Assembly: GCA_012060505.1 (NCBI GenBank)
Contig: GCA_012060505.1_3027.2
Length of the DNA stretch: 15,812 nt
Origin: a phage
Direction: 5' to 3' (one strand)
The notes below the pieces were generated by a model. The model did not search any database. It saw only the letters and a list, made by a program, of their open reading frames with translations, and was not told the DNA's origin. Below are positions 132-13,512 of this stretch, one piece after another. The translations under genes and the position numbers were made by a program. Position 1 is the stretch's first letter; each line of letters begins with the position of its first letter.

Positions 132-521
132 TTAATCCAAAATATTATTAGGCATTGGTTGAACACTCACAAGTTCTTTAAAGAACTCAGTAGAGTCAGG
201 CAATTTAACCATTTCCGGAGCATGCTTACTGAATTTATGTTTACAATGACGGCATTTATATTCAAGCTCTGGTTTACGCCAGTTAATCAATTGAACTTGT
301 TCAGTACCGCATTCAGGGCAATTAGGAACGTTTTTAGAAGCTCTTTCACGTCGTTCAACCATAGCCATAATAGCATCCCATGATGGAGGTTTAAAATCTA
401 AATCGTCGCAGCCGTGAATCTTTCCACGCATTTTCATATCATCTTCCTCACCAGCCATAATAATTTTAATTAAACTAGAATTACTTGAAGCTGCAATGTC
501 TTCTAATAAACGCTTTTTCAT
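132..521 (-). CDS. Hypothetical 129-aa protein with probable zinc ribbon (CPECG...CRHCKH)
   Basis: ORF track; ATG at 519-521 preceded by GAGGT; ATGA stop-start overlap with upstream gene; paired Cys motifs. Confidence 0.7.
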
Positions 522-1447
522 TTCAATACCTCAATAGCATTACGTAAACCATTTGCTTTTGCATTAAGAGCTTTTAACAATTTGGTGTGTTCTGCAATTT
601 GGGCTTCAACTTCAATCAAACGAGCATTGAGATATTCGCGTTCTTCACTCAGATTATCAGCCTTTTCTGCTTTAGGTTCTTTTACAACTTGCTTATATGT
701 ATTAGGGTTCTTCAGTTTAATTAGAATGCGTGAACTGTACAGCATTGAACCATTATCTTCGGTTTCGTCATACATTTCCACTACGTCCATCATCTCCACC
801 ATCGTGCAGAGTTTATAAGACAACGAACGAATAATTTTGTTGTACTTATTAATTTCTCTAGCTGTCATGGTGCCGAGATTACGTGAGTAATAATAAGGAA
901 CCTGGATATTAATTAATACTGATGAACCACCTGGCTTGTGTGTTACTTCATCAGCAATAACCCAATCCTTAACATGAACTGTATTTGTACGGTCATCGCC
1001 CGCGGTAAATAGTTTACGAGCATGCTTAAAAAGCATATTCACTTGGTCATTGAATTGACAAGCGAATTTATCAGCAAATTTAGTTTCGGGAATGGTAGAT
1101 AACCAATCAGCCAAATGGGTCTTTTTAACATCGTTAACAATAGTAAATTCAACCAAATCGGTTATAGATGTCTCAGATTTAATGAAGCTCGGCTTCATAA
1201 AGTTTTTAATGTTATCACTAGCTACAGTAGAAGATAACAGACGAGAACGTTTAAACCATTGAAGTAAATTGCCTAACGAATAAGAATAAGCGTTTTGAGT
1301 ATCTTTACAAATATGGTTTTCCCATCCAATATAGTCTAAAAAATCACGAAGAATATTATTGATTACTGCTCTGTGCCCGATCTGATAATTACGGTGTTTA
1401 GTAATAAGACTGTCAAAATAATCAATATAATGTTTACGAGTTTTCAT
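518..1447 (-). CDS. Hypothetical 309-aa protein, N-terminus MKTRK, C-terminal coiled coil
   Basis: ORF track; ATG at 1445-1447; heptad-like C-terminus [42 protein letters not shown]. Confidence 0.75.
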   Translation of the reverse strand: MKTRKHYIDYFDSLITKHRNYQIGHRAVINNILRDFLDYIGWENHICKDTQNAYSYSLGNLLQWFKRSRLLSSTVASDNIKNFMKPSFIKSETSITDLVEFTIVNDVKKTHLADWLSTIPETKFADKFACQFNDQVNMLFKHARKLFTAGDDRTNTVHVKDWVIADEVTHKPGGSSVLINIQVPYYYSRNLGTMTAREINKYNKIIRSLSYKLCTMVEMMDVVEMYDETEDNGSMLYSSRILIKLKNPNTYKQVVKEPKAEKADNLSEEREYLNARLIEVEAQIAEHTKLLKALNAKANGLRNAIEVLK

Positions 1448-1469: not shown

Positions 1470-1499
1470 TTTATACTCCGAGCCATCCTTGGCTTTAAA
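1470..1499 (-). promoter_or_regulatory. Weak promoter-like element (TATAAAT-type box) with hairpin AGCCA-tcct-TGGCT
   Basis: Minus strand reads ggagTATAAATcat upstream of the 518-1447 start; short inverted repeat at 1481-1494; no good -35. Confidence 0.3.
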
Positions 1500-2501
1500 T
1501 TACTTAATTAACTGTAAAGCTTGTTCAAGACGATCAAGACGATTAACAGATTCTTCCCAAATCCTTTTAGCTTGCTCATATTCTTTCTGTGCTTTATTAG
1601 AAATTTCTAGAACTTCTTTATAAGCTTTTTCTAGTGCAATAACTTCTGGACGAATTTCTACCGATTCAGGTGAATCATCAAGATTATCCATTAGTTCCTC
1701 AAGGGTAGTTTCTTCTTTAGGAGTATTCACAATTTCTTCGCATTTTTGTTGGTAAATTTCTTTATCAGTTAGTGAATAAGCACATTTCACTTCACGAAGA
1801 CTAATTACAATTTTATATCCTTCCCAACCACCAATATTTTTGAAAGGATATGTATGAATACTTTTTACAGTTTCCATACAATCCAAAGCCGTCTCTAATT
1901 GATGAGTTATAGTGCTAGCAATTGAGAAAAATTTATTAATATTCTTTTGGTTAGCTTCTGGTGTAAAAAATTCATAATTCACAAAAATAGCTACTTTATT
2001 TTTATCAAGCTCATATTCTTTTACGATAATCATATCAGAAGCCAAAGGATGAATTTGACGATAATCGCCATAACATAATTTAGAAGCTGATTTTAGAATT
2101 TTTCCTTTAAAAAGTCTGAAATTACTAATCCAACGACGAGTAAAAATATTCTTAGGGTCTTCTTTGATATTAAGATGATAAGAATTAACATCACCGAACC
2201 AATTGTATCCTATTACACCTTTAGTTCGTTTAATTTCTTTCCCAAAATTACCAAGAATATCCCGATTAACTAAATATGAAAGAAGACGAGACCCTTTAAA
2301 GATTATCTTAATATCATCTTTATCTACACGGCTAGAAATTTCACGAACTTCATGAATAAATTTACTGGAAGAAACAATACTTGCATCAATACTGCTGAGC
2401 CATTGATTGATAATAGAAAGAACAGCATTCTGACTAGACATGGGTTTAACTTTATCATCAATAACCCTATTGAATGATTTGATATATTCGTTACGAGTCA
2501 T
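1500..2501 (-). CDS. Hypothetical 334-aa protein, N-terminus MTRNEY, C-terminal coiled coil
   Basis: ORF track frame; start moved to ATG 2499-2501 (SD GAGGAG upstream) because the longer track start overlaps the promoter at 2530-2559. Confidence 0.75.
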   Translation of the reverse strand: MTRNEYIKSFNRVIDDKVKPMSSQNAVLSIINQWLSSIDASIVSSSKFIHEVREISSRVDKDDIKIIFKGSRLLSYLVNRDILGNFGKEIKRTKGVIGYNWFGDVNSYHLNIKEDPKNIFTRRWISNFRLFKGKILKSASKLCYGDYRQIHPLASDMIIVKEYELDKNKVAIFVNYEFFTPEANQKNINKFFSIASTITHQLETALDCMETVKSIHTYPFKNIGGWEGYKIVISLREVKCAYSLTDKEIYQQKCEEIVNTPKEETTLEELMDNLDDSPESVEIRPEVIALEKAYKEVLEISNKAQKEYEQAKRIWEESVNRLDRLEQALQLIK

Positions 2502-2529: not shown

Positions 2530-2559
2530 ATTATACCACATCCTTGTGGCAAAGTAAAC
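2530..2559 (-). promoter_or_regulatory. T4-early-type sigma70 promoter
   Basis: Minus strand: GTTTAC - 18 nt - TATAAT with TGG immediately 5' of the -10 (extended -10); placed between the stop of gene 2559-3578 and the start of gene 1500-2501. Confidence 0.6.
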
Positions 2560-3578
2560 TAGTTCAGTGCATTTAATGCATTGTTCAGTTTAGAACGTTG
2601 CTTTGTCAGATTTTGAACCCTTGACTGAGCTTGTTCTAACGCCTTTTCAGCTTCTAGCACTTCATTGGTCGCTTTAACGAGTTCATCATCTACTGCCTTG
2701 ATAGACTTCTCAATCGCATCCGCGTGCCATTTTTCAACAGGTTTAAGACTCGGATTTTCAACAGGAAGAAAATTCACTTTATTGAATTTCCATGCATCAT
2801 TATTACCTGAACTATACATCCAAAATTTAGGATCGTTTGATAAGTAATTGGATAAATTTAAGTTATCTTGTACTTCCTGCTTTTTCTCTTGCGGGACTTC
2901 GTCCTTTCTCAAAAAATCGTATTTAAATGAAACGATCATATCAAGTTCATATGATGTTGTATCTAACTTAAATCGTTCAAAACGAGGTAAAATCTTAGAC
3001 TGAACAGCGGCAACAACATCCATATACTTAAATGCTTCTGTCAACTGTGATTTAAGGCATTCACAAATTGAAAGAGAATTTTTTGTATTAGGTTTAAAGC
3101 TAATTCGTGCAGTTCTATTATTTTCTTTTAATGGTCTTACTTCCATCTGAAGAGTATAACCATCAAATTTCAGGTTCTTTAAGTTAATGTCAGAACCTTT
3201 TAATCGACTAGCTGTCGACAAAATTTGCTTTAACTGTTTACGGAATAGAGCAATAAATCTCCATTCAATACGATAATGATTGGGATTGAAAAATCCAGAT
3301 GATAAATCAACCTTACTCTGACCAACACCTTGAACAAATAGAGGATTTTTATAATCAATAGTTTTACAGAAATCGGTGAGCTGCTCACGAGCAGTCATTT
3401 GTGTAATATATCCCGCTTTACTAAAATGACGTAACCATTCACTGCTATTCATATATTTAAAGTGAATGGAACTATTAACTCTATCAGGGTCTAAATTATT
3501 TTGGCACAAAAATGTCATAACATTACGGGTATAGCTGGCATTACGAACCATATCTTCAATTTGAGAACGAGTTTTCAT
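2559..3578 (-). CDS. Hypothetical 339-aa protein, N-terminus MKTRS, C-terminal coiled coil
   Basis: ORF track; ATG 3576-3578 with SD AAGGAA; C-terminus LVKATNEVLEAEKALEQAQSRVQNLTKQRSKLNNALNALN. Confidence 0.75.
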   Translation of the reverse strand: MKTRSQIEDMVRNASYTRNVMTFLCQNNLDPDRVNSSIHFKYMNSSEWLRHFSKAGYITQMTAREQLTDFCKTIDYKNPLFVQGVGQSKVDLSSGFFNPNHYRIEWRFIALFRKQLKQILSTASRLKGSDINLKNLKFDGYTLQMEVRPLKENNRTARISFKPNTKNSLSICECLKSQLTEAFKYMDVVAAVQSKILPRFERFKLDTTSYELDMIVSFKYDFLRKDEVPQEKKQEVQDNLNLSNYLSNDPKFWMYSSGNNDAWKFNKVNFLPVENPSLKPVEKWHADAIEKSIKAVDDELVKATNEVLEAEKALEQAQSRVQNLTKQRSKLNNALNALN

Positions 3579-3586
3579 AGTGTTCC

Positions 3587-4474
3587 TTAAGATTTAAGTA
3601 AATCAACAATTTTAATTAACTTTTCACGCTCAGATTTAGCTTTACTACTCAATCCAGATAGTCTAAAGATTTCATCGTCATATTGTTGAATAGAAATATT
3701 CAGCTCTTCAATTTGCTTATTAAAATAATCAATTTGCTCAGAATGTTTTTCGTTACTACGAACTGGTACAGGTTTTGTAGGCAATTTAGTTGAACTGGAT
3801 TCATCCGGGCGATAAATTAAAATACAACTTGAACCAATTGGACATTTTGCACCAGATGAATATTCTAATGTTCCAGATTCTTTTAAAACTTCAAAAGCTA
3901 AACAGAGATGATGACCCATATTGACATAATCAGTAGAGCGAGCTCTGATGTAATAATCATCTCCACGAGTACTAAATTTAAAGCATTTAAGGTCTTCTGT
4001 ATTATTGGTCTTAAAAATCATTTGTTTATCTAGACCTTTAGCTAATCGAGCGCCTAATGCTAATAATCGTCGTTGATTTTCCCACAAATCTGCAATCATT
4101 TGGTCAAATGATAATTTTGGCATTAGTCGACCATAAAGGTCATATCCTTTATTATAATTACGAAGAATTTCACTCGCATTAATACGAGACAATGCTCCAA
4201 TTTTATTAAGGGCTTTCATGATGCGATTAGATAAACTCATTCCAGATCCGTTTGTTCGCTGTAAATGTTTTTCTAATCCAAATCCAATATCAACTTTAAA
4301 TTTATCTAAAATTTCAGCATGAACATCTCTGTCAATAACATTCAAATCCAAAGTTGGGTTAAATCTATGAAAAAATTTATCTGGCTCTCCACGACGAAGT
4401 ACAGTCCATTCATTCAATTTTTTATTAACTAAAGATTTAATTACTGTATTGACATTATTAATTACTACTGACAT
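3587..4474 (-). CDS. Hypothetical 295-aa protein with C-terminal coiled coil
   Basis: Track ORF begins at a TTG; internal ATG at 4472-4474 has a strong SD (GAGGAAAAT) and sits 7 nt after the upstream gene stop, so it is preferred. Confidence 0.7.
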   Translation of the reverse strand: MSVVINNVNTVIKSLVNKKLNEWTVLRRGEPDKFFHRFNPTLDLNVIDRDVHAEILDKFKVDIGFGLEKHLQRTNGSGMSLSNRIMKALNKIGALSRINASEILRNYNKGYDLYGRLMPKLSFDQMIADLWENQRRLLALGARLAKGLDKQMIFKTNNTEDLKCFKFSTRGDDYYIRARSTDYVNMGHHLCLAFEVLKESGTLEYSSGAKCPIGSSCILIYRPDESSSTKLPTKPVPVRSNEKHSEQIDYFNKQIEELNISIQQYDDEIFRLSGLSSKAKSEREKLIKIVDLLKS

Positions 4475-4481
4475 ATTTTCC

Positions 4482-4883
4482 TCACTCAATTTTACCAATT
4501 ATGCGGAATAAGATTGAACAGACTATATAAGTACCACATATAGATTGAACTAATGCCATTCCAAAGAACCAAACAATATTATCAAACCATGTCTGTTTTA
4601 CGTCGAAAGGACGTAAACTTACAGTAATATTATCACCTTTTTCTATTGACGAATACATCTCTGGTGAAATATATTCGCTAAATCTATAACCGTCTTTGAG
4701 TTCATATACAGCAATAAATGATAAACTAGACCCCTTTCCTTGAGTTCCTGTAATGGTATTAACTACAGTAACATCATAATCTTTATAATGCATATAATCA
4801 TTAATTGCGTAATAACCATATGCAATTACTATACATAAACAACATATCAATAAATTCAATCTTTTAATTATCAACTGTTTCAT
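4482..4883 (-). CDS. Predicted membrane protein, 133 aa, hydrophobic segments at both ends
   Basis: ORF track; ATG 4881-4883; hydrophobic stretches LNLLICCLCIVIAYGYY and IVWFFGMALVQSICGTYIVCSILF. Confidence 0.7.
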   Translation of the reverse strand: MKQLIIKRLNLLICCLCIVIAYGYYAINDYMHYKDYDVTVVNTITGTQGKGSSLSFIAVYELKDGYRFSEYISPEMYSSIEKGDNITVSLRPFDVKQTWFDNIVWFFGMALVQSICGTYIVCSILFRIIGKIE

Positions 4884-4912
4884 AATAATCTCAATTAAAA
4901 GGGCTTAGAACC

Positions 4913-4941
4913 ATTATACCATCCTTGGTATAAAGCGGTTA
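4913..4941 (-). promoter_or_regulatory. Promoter-like element with TGG-TATAAT extended -10 but degenerate -35
   Basis: Minus strand reads ccaaggatggTATAATgg upstream of the 4482-4883 start; -35 position does not match GTTTAC. Confidence 0.35.
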
Positions 4942-5466
4942 TGCGAGTACCGTCTTTAACCGTTCTTCAAATTTCCGAAGAGTGTTCTGGCGTTCAGCTC
5001 TTTGCTTTTTGTAAGTTTCAATACGCTCTGAAATGAGAGTGTATCGTTCATTTACTGATTCTTTCATAAAATCAGGAATTTCACGAGAAGCTTTAATCTC
5101 ATCAAATTTATCAATAACAGCTTGCTCTTCAGCAATTAAGTTATCATACATTAAAATATCTTTCTTGATGAACTCAATATCTTCTTGAGTTACACGAGAT
5201 AATTTAGATGCTTTATCCTTTTTGTACTGTTCGTTAGTATCACGAGACCAGTGTAATGTACGATTTTTATTCGTATTTTTGTAAATTTCTACAATACCAA
5301 TTTCATCAATAATAACGATCCAATTCCAACGGGATTTGTAAATTTGTCCTCCATCAACAGTGATTTCACCTCCGATTGAGATGTCATTAAAGAACTTGCT
5401 TTGTGCTTCAGATTTAAATTTACCATCGTTGTAATTTACCAGGTTGAAAATATCTTTAGCATTCAT
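4939..5466 (-). CDS. Hypothetical 175-aa protein, C-terminal coiled coil
   Basis: ORF track frame; start moved to ATG 5464-5466 (SD GGAGG) because the longer track ORF runs through the promoter at 5495-5524. Confidence 0.7.
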   Translation of the reverse strand: MNAKDIFNLVNYNDGKFKSEAQSKFFNDISIGGEITVDGGQIYKSRWNWIVIIDEIGIVEIYKNTNKNRTLHWSRDTNEQYKKDKASKLSRVTQEDIEFIKKDILMYDNLIAEEQAVIDKFDEIKASREIPDFMKESVNERYTLISERIETYKKQRAERQNTLRKFEERLKTVLA

Positions 5467-5494: not shown

Positions 5495-5524
5495 ATAGTA
5501 CCACAGAGGAACAGTCTTGTAAAC
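5495..5524 (-). promoter_or_regulatory. T4-early-type sigma70 promoter
   Basis: Minus strand: GTTTAC - 18 nt - TACTAT, TGG 5' of the -10; shares a 22-nt identical core (5482-5503) with the promoter at 6934-6963. Confidence 0.6.
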
Positions 5525-5930: not shown

Positions 5931-6899
5931 TTATTTCAGAAGAGTAACCTCAGCGATTTCTTCCCAACCGTTTTTGTCGGTCATAATAAAGTCAGCAAGA
6001 TAAAGAGCAGTACGCAGTGAAACATTGCGTAAACGATTAACATTGACTTTCATCCATGATAATGCTTTATAAGTTTCTTCATCAGAAAGACCGCGCTTTT
6101 GCATCATGTCAGTTGAAAGAATAACATCTTCAACCCTGACCATAATTTCTTCATTAGTGTGAACACCCAAATCCAAATAAACTGAGCGGGACACTAATGC
6201 TTGTAAATGTGGAGCAAGTTTAGTACCACGGTCTAATTCGCGGTCAATATCAACGTTTGTGATAAAAACAATCGTTCCTTTAAATTCAAACTCACGCTCA
6301 ATGCCTTTTTCTTCTAAGTAAGAAGATGCAGTGCTCCAGCAGACTTTACGGGTCTCTCCAGTGTCCAGAGCAGCTTTTAGAAGATTAAGAATGTCCATAT
6401 CAGAGAAAACATCCACATCATCAATCAAAAGGACAGAATTCTCTTCACGATTATTCCAAAGCTGTTCATAAAGACCAATACCAGAGATTTTACCATTAAT
6501 GCTTTTATACTCAATGTATCCAATATCATTTGCTTTATTTAAAGCTTTATCTAAAGAATACGTTTTACCAATACCTGCTGCTCCCGAGATAATTAATGAA
6601 CGAATGTTTCCGTTAATAATACCATTCGTCATCATTCCCATAACATTAAATCTTTTATTAATGCGGGTTTTCATATCTTCATACGATTCTTTAACTTCTT
6701 CAACTTTTACACCATCATATGAAATGTCTGATTTGTAAACCCAAACACCGCGACGTTTACCGTCAATTTCAACAAAAACTTTACCATCTCCTTGTGCATC
6801 TACCGGAGCATTATCTGGGAACCATTCGCCTAAGAGCTCAAAAGTTCCAGAGATTTCTTTACCGAAGTAGATACCCTTATTGATAGTTACAGTTTTCAT
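5931..6899 (-). CDS. AAA+/P-loop ATPase-like protein, 322 aa
   Basis: Walker A SGAAGIGKTY, Walker B-like VLLIDDVD, sensor-like IVFITN; start ATG 6897-6899 with SD GGAGAAT, just downstream of the promoter at 6934-6963. Confidence 0.8.
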   Translation of the reverse strand: MKTVTINKGIYFGKEISGTFELLGEWFPDNAPVDAQGDGKVFVEIDGKRRGVWVYKSDISYDGVKVEEVKESYEDMKTRINKRFNVMGMMTNGIINGNIRSLIISGAAGIGKTYSLDKALNKANDIGYIEYKSINGKISGIGLYEQLWNNREENSVLLIDDVDVFSDMDILNLLKAALDTGETRKVCWSTASSYLEEKGIEREFEFKGTIVFITNVDIDRELDRGTKLAPHLQALVSRSVYLDLGVHTNEEIMVRVEDVILSTDMMQKRGLSDEETYKALSWMKVNVNRLRNVSLRTALYLADFIMTDKNGWEEIAEVTLLK

Positions 6900-6933
6900 T
6901 TTATTCTCCAAATCCGTATCAGTTGATAGTTGT

Positions 6934-6963
6934 ATAGTACCATAAAGCTTTATGCTTGTAAAC
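6934..6963 (-). promoter_or_regulatory. T4-early-type sigma70 promoter
   Basis: Minus strand: GTTTAC - 18 nt - TACTAT with TGG extended -10; sits immediately downstream of the terminator at 6986-7013. Confidence 0.6.
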
Positions 6964-6985
6964 AATTTTGTGAAAAAATTTTTGA

Positions 6986-7013
6986 AATAAAAAAAGGGAG
7001 CCCGAAGGCTCCC
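6986..7013 (-). terminator. Intrinsic terminator, 7-bp GC stem with UUCG loop and U-run
   Basis: Minus strand reads GGGAGCC-ttcg-GGCTCCC followed by TTTTTTTATTT, directly after the TGA of gene 7016-8029. Confidence 0.8.
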
Positions 7014-7015
7014 TA

Positions 7016-8029
7016 TCATTTATAATAACTTCGGTGGTTTTCAAGATAGACCTTCTCAAGGAAGTCATCCCAGAAACCCATGTCTACTTTTTGCTGCATA
7101 CCGTTCTTAGAAGCTTCAATAGATGCTGCTTCTACTTGATCGACCACATCTTCCAAAAACTCTTGAACTGTTTTAAATGGATGTTTACCCAACTTCACGT
7201 CGAGAATAAATGGAGCATCTTGAAGTGGATAAACCAAGTCACCAGTTTTGTAAATTTCCAATAGTTGAAGTCCACCACGGCAAGCATGGCTCAGAGCTTT
7301 CCAGTCAATACCTTCATTGGCTTCGGCCTTACGAGCACGTTCACCGTATTCGGCATCAAGTTTATTCAAAGACTGCTTAAGCTCAATAAGAGAAAGCGTT
7401 GTCTGATATTTACGACCCAACACAGTGTAGAACGTTTGTGGACCGGTTTTCTCATGATTATGGAATACCCATTCACAAAACTCGTTTTCAGGGAGTCGGT
7501 GTTTGATATCTTCTACCTTAGTTCGGCGTAAACGATCTGGAATTCCCTCTTGGTAATCAACCCACTGGTCAGGGATTTGATTAACTACTTTCAATACATC
7601 ACGTAATGCGGCCAAACGAGAACCCTTGACACCGTATTTAGAAGCTTGCTTGCGAACATATCCTAAATAGGATTTCATGTTAGTCGTATAAAAACGAGAA
7701 CGATTGTCTTGAATAAACTTCCATACATCAGGCAAATCAGATTTAACTACCAGTTCAAGTGGAGTGTGGAGCATATCCAATGCTACGGTTTCACCATCTG
7801 CTGCTAATTTAAAGAAATATTTAAGACTGTATAGTTCATGGTCAATATCATCTTTGGTGTTTTTAGATGATGTGTTGTTAGTGTTTTTACTCATATGCTC
7901 TTTGACATTTCCGATAAGAATATCGCGAGCAGGAGGAACAAAGATTTCTTTAAAATCTACATCAGATTCTGGAGTAGAAGTTCCATAAAGATGACTACCA
8001 AAATAGCTTTTCATTACTGTTTTCATCAT
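7016..8029 (-). CDS. Pol-beta-superfamily nucleotidyltransferase-fold protein, 337 aa
   Basis: N-terminal motif GSHLYGTSTPESDVDF (G[SG]-x9-13-D-x-D) plus downstream acidic ALD; ATG 8027-8029 overlaps the upstream stop as ATGA. Confidence 0.75.
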   Translation of the reverse strand: MMKTVMKSYFGSHLYGTSTPESDVDFKEIFVPPARDILIGNVKEHMSKNTNNTSSKNTKDDIDHELYSLKYFFKLAADGETVALDMLHTPLELVVKSDLPDVWKFIQDNRSRFYTTNMKSYLGYVRKQASKYGVKGSRLAALRDVLKVVNQIPDQWVDYQEGIPDRLRRTKVEDIKHRLPENEFCEWVFHNHEKTGPQTFYTVLGRKYQTTLSLIELKQSLNKLDAEYGERARKAEANEGIDWKALSHACRGGLQLLEIYKTGDLVYPLQDAPFILDVKLGKHPFKTVQEFLEDVVDQVEAASIEASKNGMQQKVDMGFWDDFLEKVYLENHRSYYK

Positions 8030-8487
8030 TCAGCCTTATATTCAATAACAGGACATACTTTAGCTTTACGAGCTTTTAAAAATTCAACGATAATCGATTT
8101 CTTGGGTTGAATAGGAGGTAAACCTTTATACGCCCTATCAATATTTTCTACGTGTAAAGCATAGTCCTTTTTCCATTTATAATCTTTATATTTTTCACGC
8201 AGTTGTGCAGGAATAACAAATGAACCGATAATAAGTAAAACAACCAAAAGCGCAAGTATAAATGCTGATGGAAGCAAAGTCCATAAACTACCGAAAATAA
8301 GCCAACGTTGTAGGCTTTCTGCACAAATAATTGTTAGCCCTATGAGTATAGTACACCCAAAAATAGAAACGAAAAATGTAGGTATGGCAATAGACCAAAA
8401 ATATGCGCATAGTGTCTTAGGTCGTTGCCATTCATCGTTAAACAATTTGAATAATTTATAGTGCCAAGAGTTTTCATTAATAATCAT
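8026..8487 (-). CDS. Predicted multi-pass membrane protein, 153 aa
   Basis: ORF track; ATG 8485-8487 with SD AAAGGA; three long hydrophobic segments. Confidence 0.7.
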   Translation of the reverse strand: MIINENSWHYKLFKLFNDEWQRPKTLCAYFWSIAIPTFFVSIFGCTILIGLTIICAESLQRWLIFGSLWTLLPSAFILALLVVLLIIGSFVIPAQLREKYKDYKWKKDYALHVENIDRAYKGLPPIQPKKSIIVEFLKARKAKVCPVIEYKAE

Positions 8488-8489
8488 AA

Positions 8490-9011
8490 TTATCCTTTCA
8501 TTGAAGGCGTAACGGTTGTTAAATACTTAATCATAGCTTCAGCTTCTGATTTTGATAGTGAAATTTCTTCACCGTTTTGGCGAATAGAAACAAAATCTGG
8601 ATGACGATCACCACCAGCTTTTAAAACACACATATAAGTATCAGCTTCGCCTTCAATATTTGAAATGATTGAAGCAGTTCCACACGAATGTGGTTTTTGA
8701 TAAATCAATACAGCTTTTCTTCCACCATTTGACTGTTCATAGGCTTTTAATACATCAAACAAATCAGTTCTTTTATCAATAGCTAAAATGTTATTTTCAT
8801 CTTCAATGTTAAATCCTTCGGATACTTCATAAAGCGTTACCCATAAATCGCCAATATCAATAACAGCATTTACTTTTCCACGGCTTTCAAGAGTATGACA
8901 AATTTTCTTGATTTCGTCATAACTCATTTTAATAATATCATCTCCTTGACTAAGGAAGATGTCATTTTTAAATTCAACACGAATTAAACCGCTTCCACTT
9001 GAAATAAACAT
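8490..9011 (-). CDS. Hypothetical 173-aa protein, paralog of the next gene
   Basis: ORF track; ATG 9009-9011 with SD GAGGAAAT; C-terminus EAEAMIKYLTTVTPSMKG resembles the C-terminus of the 9018-9560 product. Confidence 0.7.
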   Translation of the reverse strand: MFISSGSGLIRVEFKNDIFLSQGDDIIKMSYDEIKKICHTLESRGKVNAVIDIGDLWVTLYEVSEGFNIEDENNILAIDKRTDLFDVLKAYEQSNGGRKAVLIYQKPHSCGTASIISNIEGEADTYMCVLKAGGDRHPDFVSIRQNGEEISLSKSEAEAMIKYLTTVTPSMKG

Positions 9012-10271: not shown

Positions 10272-10475
10272 TTAAACTCTCGTATTATGATCAATAATTT
10301 CATCAAGAAACATATCTAACGCTTCTAAAGCATTATCCACTTTAGTTTCAAAGTCTTTAATGCCTTTATTCGAAATACCCGATGAATACCAAGCAAAGTC
10401 AATCAGCTCTTCATCTGCTTTGCGAATTGAAGCCACTAATTCCTTGATTTTATCCGCTTGCTCTACACTAATCAT
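10272..10475 (-). CDS. Small helical protein, 67 aa, paralog-family member
   Basis: ORF track frame; start taken at ATG 10473-10475 (TAATG overlap with upstream stop); N-terminus [18 protein letters not shown]. Confidence 0.6.
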   Translation of the reverse strand: MISVEQADKIKELVASIRKADEELIDFAWYSSGISNKGIKDFETKVDNALEALDMFLDEIIDHNTRV

Positions 10476-13061: not shown

Positions 13062-13512
13062 AATCCACCACTATTAAATCAATATCAGGAGTAAACATGT
13101 CGATTAATTTAGAAACTTTATCCCAATCGCCGGCAGCAATACCACAACCTATACGTGGAATGTAAATTACCGGTTTAAACAAAAGGGTTTCTGCCTGTAG
13201 ATTTAATTCTATCATGCAGTTTACTAAAGCACCATAATCAAGATTAGGACCTGGTTCGTATTGCGTATACAAGTTATAACATATGCCAAAACCATTAGGT
13301 TTATGTTTAAAAACAATAGACATATCGCCTAATTTATCACGAGAACCGTACTCAGTTGTGGTCTTATCTATTTCTAAAATTTTGGGGTAGGCTCTTGCTA
13401 ATTGACCCGCTACACCTGAACCCATAGTATGAAAACAGTTACACCCGTGCGCAATAATATTACCTTCAAGAAAGAGGGCGACAATATCGCCCTTGATATA
13501 TTTTACAATCAT
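13033..13512 (-). CDS. Macro-domain-like (ADP-ribose-binding/processing) protein, 159 aa
   Basis: Motifs HGCNCFHTMGSGVAGQLA and PRIGCGIAAGDW resemble the N-x-x-N...GGGV and G-I-x-G loops of macro domains; ATGA overlap with vs stop. Confidence 0.7.
   Translation of the reverse strand: MIVKYIKGDIVALFLEGNIIAHGCNCFHTMGSGVAGQLARAYPKILEIDKTTTEYGSRDKLGDMSIVFKHKPNGFGICYNLYTQYEPGPNLDYGALVNCMIELNLQAETLLFKPVIYIPRIGCGIAAGDWDKVSKLIDMFTPDIDLIVVDYESTLPTSV

Follow-up and report, generated by a model that had tools for sequence, protein, structure and literature searches.

What does a small membrane protein from the early region of a T4-like phage contribute to a phage that can grow without it? The question is raised by an open reading frame (ORF) on the minus strand of a 15,812-nucleotide stretch of phage DNA (contig GCA_012060505.1_3027.2 of GenBank assembly GCA_012060505.1), called here the window. 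This ORF is the ortholog of the T4 gene nrdC.7, a genuine, expressed and dispensable accessory gene of T4-like phages. Its product is predicted to be an inner-membrane protein whose two helices hold a small beta-barrel domain, probably on the periplasmic side. The identity of the protein and its two-helix architecture, taken alone, are practically certain.

Beyond the existing annotation, as far as the literature searched goes, the analysis adds a predicted fold of high confidence, by which the family is linked to the uncharacterised bacterial DUF2500/YhhM domain, evidence from the sequences that the domain of NrdC.7 faces the periplasm, and the position of nrdC.7 between experimentally supported anti-defence genes in a cluster whose gene positions are fluid. 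As it stands the finding carries little weight, being real but ordinary; the points to keep are the DUF2500-like fold, the probable periplasmic orientation, the reading of the promoter as a middle one and the anti-defence neighbourhood.

Identity of the gene

The gene occupies the following positions:

4482..4883, minus strand: nrdC.7 coding sequence, 133 codons followed by TGA (ORF list and sequence)

The start codon ATG lies at 4883-4881 and the stop codon TGA at 4484-4482, also on the minus strand, and the 133-residue ORF that an earlier note on this DNA had drawn at 4482-4883 is exact. Around it the window shares about 98% DNA identity with T4 over 801 bases, as it does with several hundred other Tequatrovirus genomes, and the genes annotated under the T4 match are nrdC.6, nrdC.7 and nrdC.8. 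The NrdC.7 proteins of the window and of T4 (NP_049705; UniProt P39258) are about 98% identical and differ by three substitutions. The gene belongs to the nrdC-mobD early cluster, where nrdC.8 and nrdC.6 flank it just as they do in T4 and Bas37. Its RNA is classed as early, in agreement with the early region to which it had been attributed.

The product matches PHROG 2547 (function unknown) with an E-value of 7.1e-66, residues 3-133 aligning with profile positions 1-132 of 137. The Pfam family PF26908 (Phage_T4_Y05C) is precomputed on all 37 close homologues, and its assignment to the window protein is taken from these labels and not from a new scan. Against a copy of Pfam without PF26908, the window protein showed no family at E-values up to 1, and the NCBIfam and PADLOC scans gave only noise. 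Both the gene and its annotation as a membrane protein are already known, since nrdC.7 stands in the T4 genome records, where it is labelled "conserved hypothetical, predicted membrane protein", and has Pfam and PHROG families of its own. A literature search on nrdC.7, its family and its accessions found no relevant paper, and the earlier statement that nothing in the sequence identifies the protein is essentially true as far as function is concerned.

Many GenBank orthologues carry the labels "thioredoxin", "putative thioredoxin" or "Mur ligase domain-containing", for which nothing was found in support; PV287714.1, NC_054900.1 and OK272484.1 are among these records. Such labels are apparently a carry-over from the name nrdC or the result of a weak FolC-like match. 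The FolC-like match, to TIGR01499, has an E-value of 0.006 and 16 bits, against a cut-off of 163 bits.

Predicted structure and relationship to DUF2500

Hydrophobic segments were scored by Kyte-Doolittle (KD) hydropathy in 19-residue windows with a threshold of 1.6. In NrdC.7 the windows above 1.6 are confined to residues 1-29 and 103-129, and the middle of the protein (about residues 30-102, 73 residues) is hydrophilic, with 7 lysine or arginine (K/R) and 10 acidic residues. Hydrophobic segments at both ends, flanking a hydrophilic domain of about 70 residues, had been noticed before; the KD windows and the helices predicted by AlphaFold2 bear this out. The protein can be divided into three regions:

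4803..4859, minus strand: predicted transmembrane helix 1, core residues 9-27, after the tail MKQLIIKR (KD; AlphaFold2 helix 2-27, predicted local distance difference test, pLDDT, >90)
4590..4802, minus strand: predicted periplasmic small beta-barrel domain, residues 28-98, with the family-conserved N28, D29 and Y30 where it begins and R91, D94, Q97 and T98 where it ends
4506..4577, minus strand: predicted transmembrane helix 2, residues 103-126, followed by the tail RIIGKIE (KD; AlphaFold2 helix 99-132)

The AlphaFold2 barrel contains strands at residues 34-48, 53-61, 67-72 and 85-90 and short helices at 74-79 and 92-95. The pLDDT was 78.5 with 14 close sequences and 95.5 with a 100-sequence alignment, the topology being the same both times; in the latter run all five models were above 94. 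With high confidence, as far as modelling goes, NrdC.7 is predicted to be a helical-hairpin inner-membrane protein in which a packed pair of helices holds a beta-barrel of about 70 residues.

The predicted soluble domain has a fold that resembles DUF2500. The second model matched the solved structures 3q6c and 3rd4, both DUF2500 by sequence, with scores of 8.1 and 7.9, and the same two structures were again the top matches to the barrel, amid generic helical-hairpin matches. The former is annotated as DUF2500/YhhM, and 3rd4 is also assigned to DUF2500 by a YhhM profile (E-value 3e-7). Judging from these models, the closest solved relatives of the barrel appear to be the DUF2500 domains of enterobacterial YhhM-like proteins.

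At the sequence level, the window protein gave no match to DUF2500 (PF10694, gathering threshold 33.5 bits), and sub-threshold matches were found in 10 of 100 family members, the best with an E-value of 0.0012. An hhalign comparison of the family with a shallow YhhM alignment gave an E-value of 9e-5 and a probability of 59%, with the N-D motif that follows the helix lined up. When the family-alignment profile was searched against PDB sequences, nothing meaningful appeared (best E-value 0.82), so the link to DUF2500 is visible only through the fold and a weak profile-profile signal. The sequence support for this link is weak but consistent. DUF2500/YhhM proteins (3q6c, 3rd4, 2l0c) and NrdC.7 share the N-D motif at the junction between helix and domain. 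However, DUF2500 proteins come from bacteria and contain a single membrane helix, and YhhM ends with the domain, whereas NrdC.7 adds another helix after it.

The order of helix, beta domain and helix is also that of DUF3592 (PF12158), and UniProt names the homologues of Citrobacter phage Merlin and Pectobacterium phage PM2 "DUF3592 domain-containing". This label was rejected, since none of 14 proteins scanned singly, that of Merlin included, matched the family in Pfam (E-values up to 1 for the window protein and up to 10 for the others). DUF3592 is likewise absent from the 25 families listed for the Pfam scan of the 100 members. No function was found for DUF2500 or DUF3592 in the literature search.

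A lipoprotein or a cleavable signal peptide in helix 1 was also considered and discarded, since no lipobox is seen by eye and the cysteines of helix 1 are not conserved. The Bas37 ortholog (3001..3390 of a Bas37 locus) and those of some relatives have 129 residues and end in ...SLFHHILRI instead of ...VFSIIFCVFSKIE. This difference suggests a frameshift close to the end of helix 2, with a shorter second membrane segment as its result.

Membrane topology

On which side of the membrane is the barrel found? The N-terminal tail MKQLIIKR contains three K/R residues, and the residues that follow helix 1 are acidic. Over the 100 family members the density of K/R is 0.31 in the N-terminal tails, 0.18 in the C-terminal tails and 0.13 in the loop; since the tails are richer in these residues than the loop, an orientation with both termini inside is favoured. 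A cysteine pair (CxKxxC) at the hairpin between the first and second strands is present in 13 of the 100 aligned members, which are only 22-53% identical to each other; the two cysteines always occupy the same pair of alignment columns, and no member has just one of them. Such strict pairing in spite of divergence fits a disulfide bond and, by inference, an oxidising compartment, i.e. the periplasm. These sequence features make it probable that both termini of NrdC.7 are cytoplasmic and that the barrel lies in the periplasm, on the outer face of the inner membrane.

The opposite arrangement, with the barrel in the cytoplasm, as the charge pattern suggests for E. coli YhhM, would allow NrdC.7 to act on a cytoplasmic host target or to mimic or compete with YhhM. 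The DUF2500/YhhM domains are the best structural relatives of NrdC.7, the weak profile-profile similarity to YhhM includes the junction motif, and E. coli YhhM has four K/R residues after its single membrane helix. By the rule used above, this charge pattern would put the YhhM domain in the cytoplasm, so a shared fold does not guarantee a shared compartment. The evidence from the phage family itself points the other way: K/R residues are commoner in tails than in loops over the 100 members, the strictly paired cysteines of 13 of them indicate an oxidising compartment, and in NrdC.7 itself KxxxxKR precedes helix 1, while the residues that follow this helix are acidic. An inverted topology is thus considered distinctly unlikely.

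Distribution and conservation of the family

A profile search over 1.84 billion representative sequences (E-values up to 0.001, clusters at 50% identity) gave 136 clusters, nearly all of 120-165 residues and matched end to end; a word-indexed search found close relatives only. In the 100-member alignment the mean column identity is 20% and the layout is kept, both segments exceeding a KD value of 1.6 in 85 members and of 1.3 in 96, although the sequences of the membrane segments are poorly conserved. The core domain is far better conserved than the helices. The most conserved positions (at least 90%) are Y30, F68, D94, Q97 and N102, followed by G83, R91 and T98 (in 77-89 of the 100 members) and by N28 and D29 (62-66 of 100). 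They are found where helix 1 ends, in the core of the barrel and in a short stretch before helix 2. In the models, N28-D29-Y30, R91, D94, Q97, T98 and N102 would form a neck between the barrel and the membrane.

About 690 phage records have a conserved copy of the gene, and its layout is kept down to about 20% identity. The members that have a name belong to Tequatrovirus, Mosigvirus, Moonvirus (Merlin), Karamvirus, Pantoea phage Survivor and the Pseudomonas jumbo phages 201phi2-1 and OBP, the homologues of the last two being annotated as "putative NrdC.7". All the named members seen belong to T4-like or jumbo phages, and most clusters are metagenomic, some of them on contigs of 120-290 kb. 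No clearly bacterial member was found among the clusters of the profile search, bacterial genomes not being scanned; a restriction of the family to phages is suggested by the named members and the sizes of the contigs. In Mosigvirus, Moonvirus and Karamvirus the gene is in the nrdC-mobD cluster, but at another position; for instance, Mosigvirus JS09 has it between nrdC.2 and nrdC.

Could nrdC.7 be an ORF present by chance, or the remnant of a decaying gene whose ends happen to be hydrophobic? No phenotype of this gene is seen in the published screens covered, as would be expected of a non-functional ORF. However, conservation in about 690 records, a core domain that is conserved beyond the helices, the highly confident structure prediction and the detection of the protein in infected cells all contradict this reading, whose probability is negligible; conservation and proteomics effectively refute it.

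Transcription of nrdC.7

The expression signals and the genes on both sides of nrdC.7 are as follows:

4913..4936, minus strand: element like a MotA-type middle promoter, with GCTTTA at 4936-4931, a 12-nucleotide spacer and TATAAT at 4918-4913 (sequence)
4890..4892, minus strand: weak Shine-Dalgarno sequence GAG, 6 nucleotides before the nrdC.7 ATG (sequence)
4939..5466, minus strand: nrdC.8, upstream neighbour, 175 residues, 174 of them identical to Bas37_0203
5495..5523, minus strand: early-promoter-like site ahead of nrdC.8, TTTACA, 17 nucleotides, TACTAT, with an upstream TG (sigma-70 scan)
6934..6962, minus strand: similar early-promoter-like site ahead of nrdC.10, with the same hexamers, spacing and TG (sigma-70 scan)
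3587..4474, minus strand: nrdC.6, downstream neighbour, PHROG 2257, 295 residues like bas37_0201

The promoter-like element that the earlier note had placed at 4913-4941 is present, although its class appears to be that of a MotA middle promoter and not that of an early sigma-70 promoter. It sits in the 55-nucleotide gap that follows the nrdC.8 stop codon, a gap that is 100% identical in T4 and Bas37. The element at 4913-4936 lacks a -35 hexamer for sigma-70 and is absent from the sites listed by the sigma-70 scan. GCTTTA is presumably the core of a MotA box at the spacing typical of T4 middle promoters, the class being assigned from the published T4 consensus and not from a transcript map. 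The window contains 5 occurrences of the pattern GCTTYA-N11-13-TANNNT, where 1.57 would be expected, and 1 of 200 shuffles reached 5. The T4 GenBank record contains no promoter features. On its sequence, the element before nrdC.7 matches a MotA-type middle promoter.

The site at 5495..5523 is the likely source of an early transcript that reads through into nrdC.7. Published omics data place T4 nrdC.7 in the class "early RNA / late protein", the protein being detected by proteomics (PMC9697503 supplement), and the nrdC.8 RNA is classed as early too. Downstream, the nrdC.6 ATG (4474-4472) comes 7 nucleotides after the nrdC.7 stop codon, which is overlapped by the GAGG ribosome-binding site of nrdC.6; this arrangement makes co-transcription and translational coupling of both genes probable. 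Thus nrdC.8, nrdC.7, nrdC.6 and probably nrdC.5 seem to be transcribed together, with a middle promoter inside the unit.

Three more combinations of a MotA box and a -10 hexamer are found on the coding strand, at 1497..1520, 10309..10331 and 13206..13230 (minus strand), and could be middle promoters; that at 1497..1520 is in the gap upstream of an nrdC.3-like ORF (518..1447). ORF calling runs nrdC.8 and nrdC.10 upstream through the early-promoter-like sites, which gives both genes spurious N-terminal extensions; these extensions contain "GTIQLST" and match PHROG 28140. Between nrdC.11 and nrdC.10 there is a strong hairpin of the terminator type, AGGGAGCC-TTCG-GGCTCCCT with a T run after it (6995..7014, minus strand); the early-promoter-like site at 6934..6962 lies just downstream of it.

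Mutant screens and possible functions

Different published screens include nrdC.7. The knock-down of the T4 gene by CRISPRi-ART was scored as "Not Fit" (score 0.13, p 0.64; PMC11879866 supplement). In the transposon mapping by HIDEN-SEQ (10.1101/2025.11.20.689424), 52 of 53 TA sites were disrupted in T4 nrdC.7 and 51 of 53 in its Bas37 counterpart, bas37_0202, and both genes were classed as non-essential. A genome-reduction study obtained viable T4 with the deletions nrdC.1-6 and nrdC.11-mobD.3.

Several of the genes around nrdC.7 have relatives that are reported to counteract bacterial defences. Bas37_0203, the NrdC.8 ortholog, is reported as an inhibitor of Druantia type III, and insertions in bas37_0203 were depleted 2^5.8-fold on CFE303 (log2 fold change, log2FC, -5.80) in the part of the HIDEN-SEQ data covered. 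The nrdC.1 gene is reported to inhibit Septu. Another member of the cluster, T4 nrdC.5, is reported to counter the Dsr1 defence gene of ECOR17 (PMC9391042); its counterpart in the window is:

2559..3578, minus strand: nrdC.5, PHROG 2351

The nrdC cluster looks like an anti-defence island. An obligate partnership of nrdC.7 with nrdC.6 or nrdC.8 was discarded, since Mosigvirus places the gene elsewhere and the anti-Druantia phenotype of nrdC.8 is independent of nrdC.7.

The explanation favoured here is that of a conditional periplasmic binder. Transcription of nrdC.7 would begin early, by read-through from the promoter upstream of nrdC.8, and the MotA-type middle promoter of the gene would then sustain its expression, so that the protein builds up through infection. 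The barrel would bind stoichiometrically a component of the host or of an incoming phage at the periplasmic face of the inner membrane, and would help the phage in certain hosts or situations only, as a factor of host range, counter-defence or envelope protection. Binding is preferred to enzymatic activity because NrdC.7 is too small for an obvious enzyme and no catalytic-looking motif was seen, and a conditional role because the neighbours in the accessory cluster behave in this way. As a whole, the package of identity, architecture, topology, expression and binding mechanism is a tentative proposal that falls a little short of probable; the binding and conditional-accessory mechanism itself is possible rather than probable. 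Fold, orientation and neighbourhood, taken together, are reasonable grounds for including NrdC.7 in targeted screens on wild hosts. The T4 counter-defence genes characterised so far are mostly cytoplasmic in their action, so an envelope function of NrdC.7 would add a compartment.

Several points weigh against the conditional periplasmic binder. No partner or ligand of NrdC.7 is known, and the neighbourhood is a weak argument, the cluster being made up of unrelated accessory genes. Most known defence systems are cytoplasmic, and counter-defence is therefore not an obvious task for a periplasmic domain. The conserved residues of the neck could be just structural. The link to DUF2500 remains below the Pfam threshold (best match 17.3 bits against 33.5, members being scanned singly), and, to judge from their charge patterns, the NrdC.7 and YhhM families may work on opposite sides of the membrane. 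Within the three contrasts covered from HIDEN-SEQ, a study with few hosts, bas37_0202 showed a log2FC of +0.11 on CFT073 and -0.07 on CFE303, and T4 nrdC.7 one of -0.21 in one contrast, all with an adjusted p of 1. The gene is never mentioned in the main text of that paper (10.1101/2025.11.20.689424).

The earlier note had named superinfection-exclusion and lysis-timing factors as candidates. No support was obtained for either: the only PHROG match is 2547, the family also occurs in 201phi2-1 and OBP, and the gene is dispensable in two genome-wide screens. T4 Imm, Sp and RI resemble NrdC.7 in being small, expressed early or early-middle and dispensable in single infection, and in their location in the inner membrane or periplasm (predicted in the case of NrdC.7). 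However, they have no sequence relation to it and a different fold. None of the three is known to have the helix-barrel-helix layout.

With respect to exclusion, the periplasmic barrel would prevent the DNA of a second T-even phage from entering, or would inhibit the tail lysozyme of that phage, as Imm and Sp do. The gene is transcribed early from the early region, the predicted location of its product suits an encounter with an incoming tail tip, and dispensability in single-infection screens is what an exclusion gene would show; insertions in imm and spackle were also without fitness cost in the part of the same Bas37 HIDEN-SEQ table covered. However, no relation to Imm or Sp was found in fold or in sequence, PHROG matches to their families included, and the family reaches nucleus-forming Pseudomonas jumbo phages, whose injection machinery is quite different. 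Moreover, imm and sp mutants reportedly already account, genetically, for T4 exclusion. Exclusion is therefore regarded as unlikely.

A role in lysis timing, in which the periplasmic domain would modulate the holin T or the antiholin RI and so aid lysis inhibition, is highly improbable. NrdC.7 is a small membrane protein with a predicted periplasmic domain, like RI and the C-terminal domain of T, it accumulates late, and rI is present in the same window, about 6 kb away. However, the match to PHROG 2547 alone places it outside the family of RI, no sequence relation to RI or RIII and no linkage to rI or t was found, and many genes separate rI from nrdC.7, which is adjacent neither to rI nor to t. 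The position of nrdC.7 in the cluster is not conserved either, and the family is also found in Pseudomonas jumbo phages. Decades of searches for r mutants have defined rI, rIII, t and sp, and are not known to have turned up nrdC.7.

A conditional envelope role is ranked above exclusion and lysis timing on four grounds: the surroundings of the gene in its cluster, the wide spread of the family, the absence of links to Imm, Sp or RI, and the long genetic history of exclusion and lysis inhibition in T4. This ranking is soft. As an analogy for envelope modification the Gnarl proteins were considered and set aside, since they are of 40-90 residues and unrelated, and at least one of them acts on the cytoplasmic GalU.

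A wider reading, fairly doubtful at present, is that the NrdC.7 family, common to T4-like phages and nucleus-forming Pseudomonas jumbo phages, represents an unrecognised class of periplasm-facing effector. A membrane-tethered, DUF2500-like barrel would bind a conserved component of the Gram-negative envelope, and would blunt immunity based on the envelope or on membrane effectors, exclude competitors by a route other than that of Imm and Sp, or displace a host protein of the YhhM type. If true, this would be the first functional handle on the DUF2500/YhhM fold.

Other genes of the nrdC cluster

After nrdC.11, at 8026..9011 (minus strand), the window has two ORFs of 153 and 173 residues where T4 carries the homing endonuclease gene mobD, which is missing from the window, as it is from Bas37. 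The sizes of these ORFs match those of bas37_0207 and bas37_0208, so in this region the window resembles a Bas37-like Tequatrovirus more than T4 itself. The genes nrdC.10 (5931..7019, minus strand) and nrdC.11 (7016..8029, minus strand) are uncharacterised accessory genes of the cluster; the former shows weak PHROG matches to clamp-loader (AAA+) proteins, and the Bas37 counterpart of the latter carries PF10127 (RlaP nucleotidyltransferase-like).

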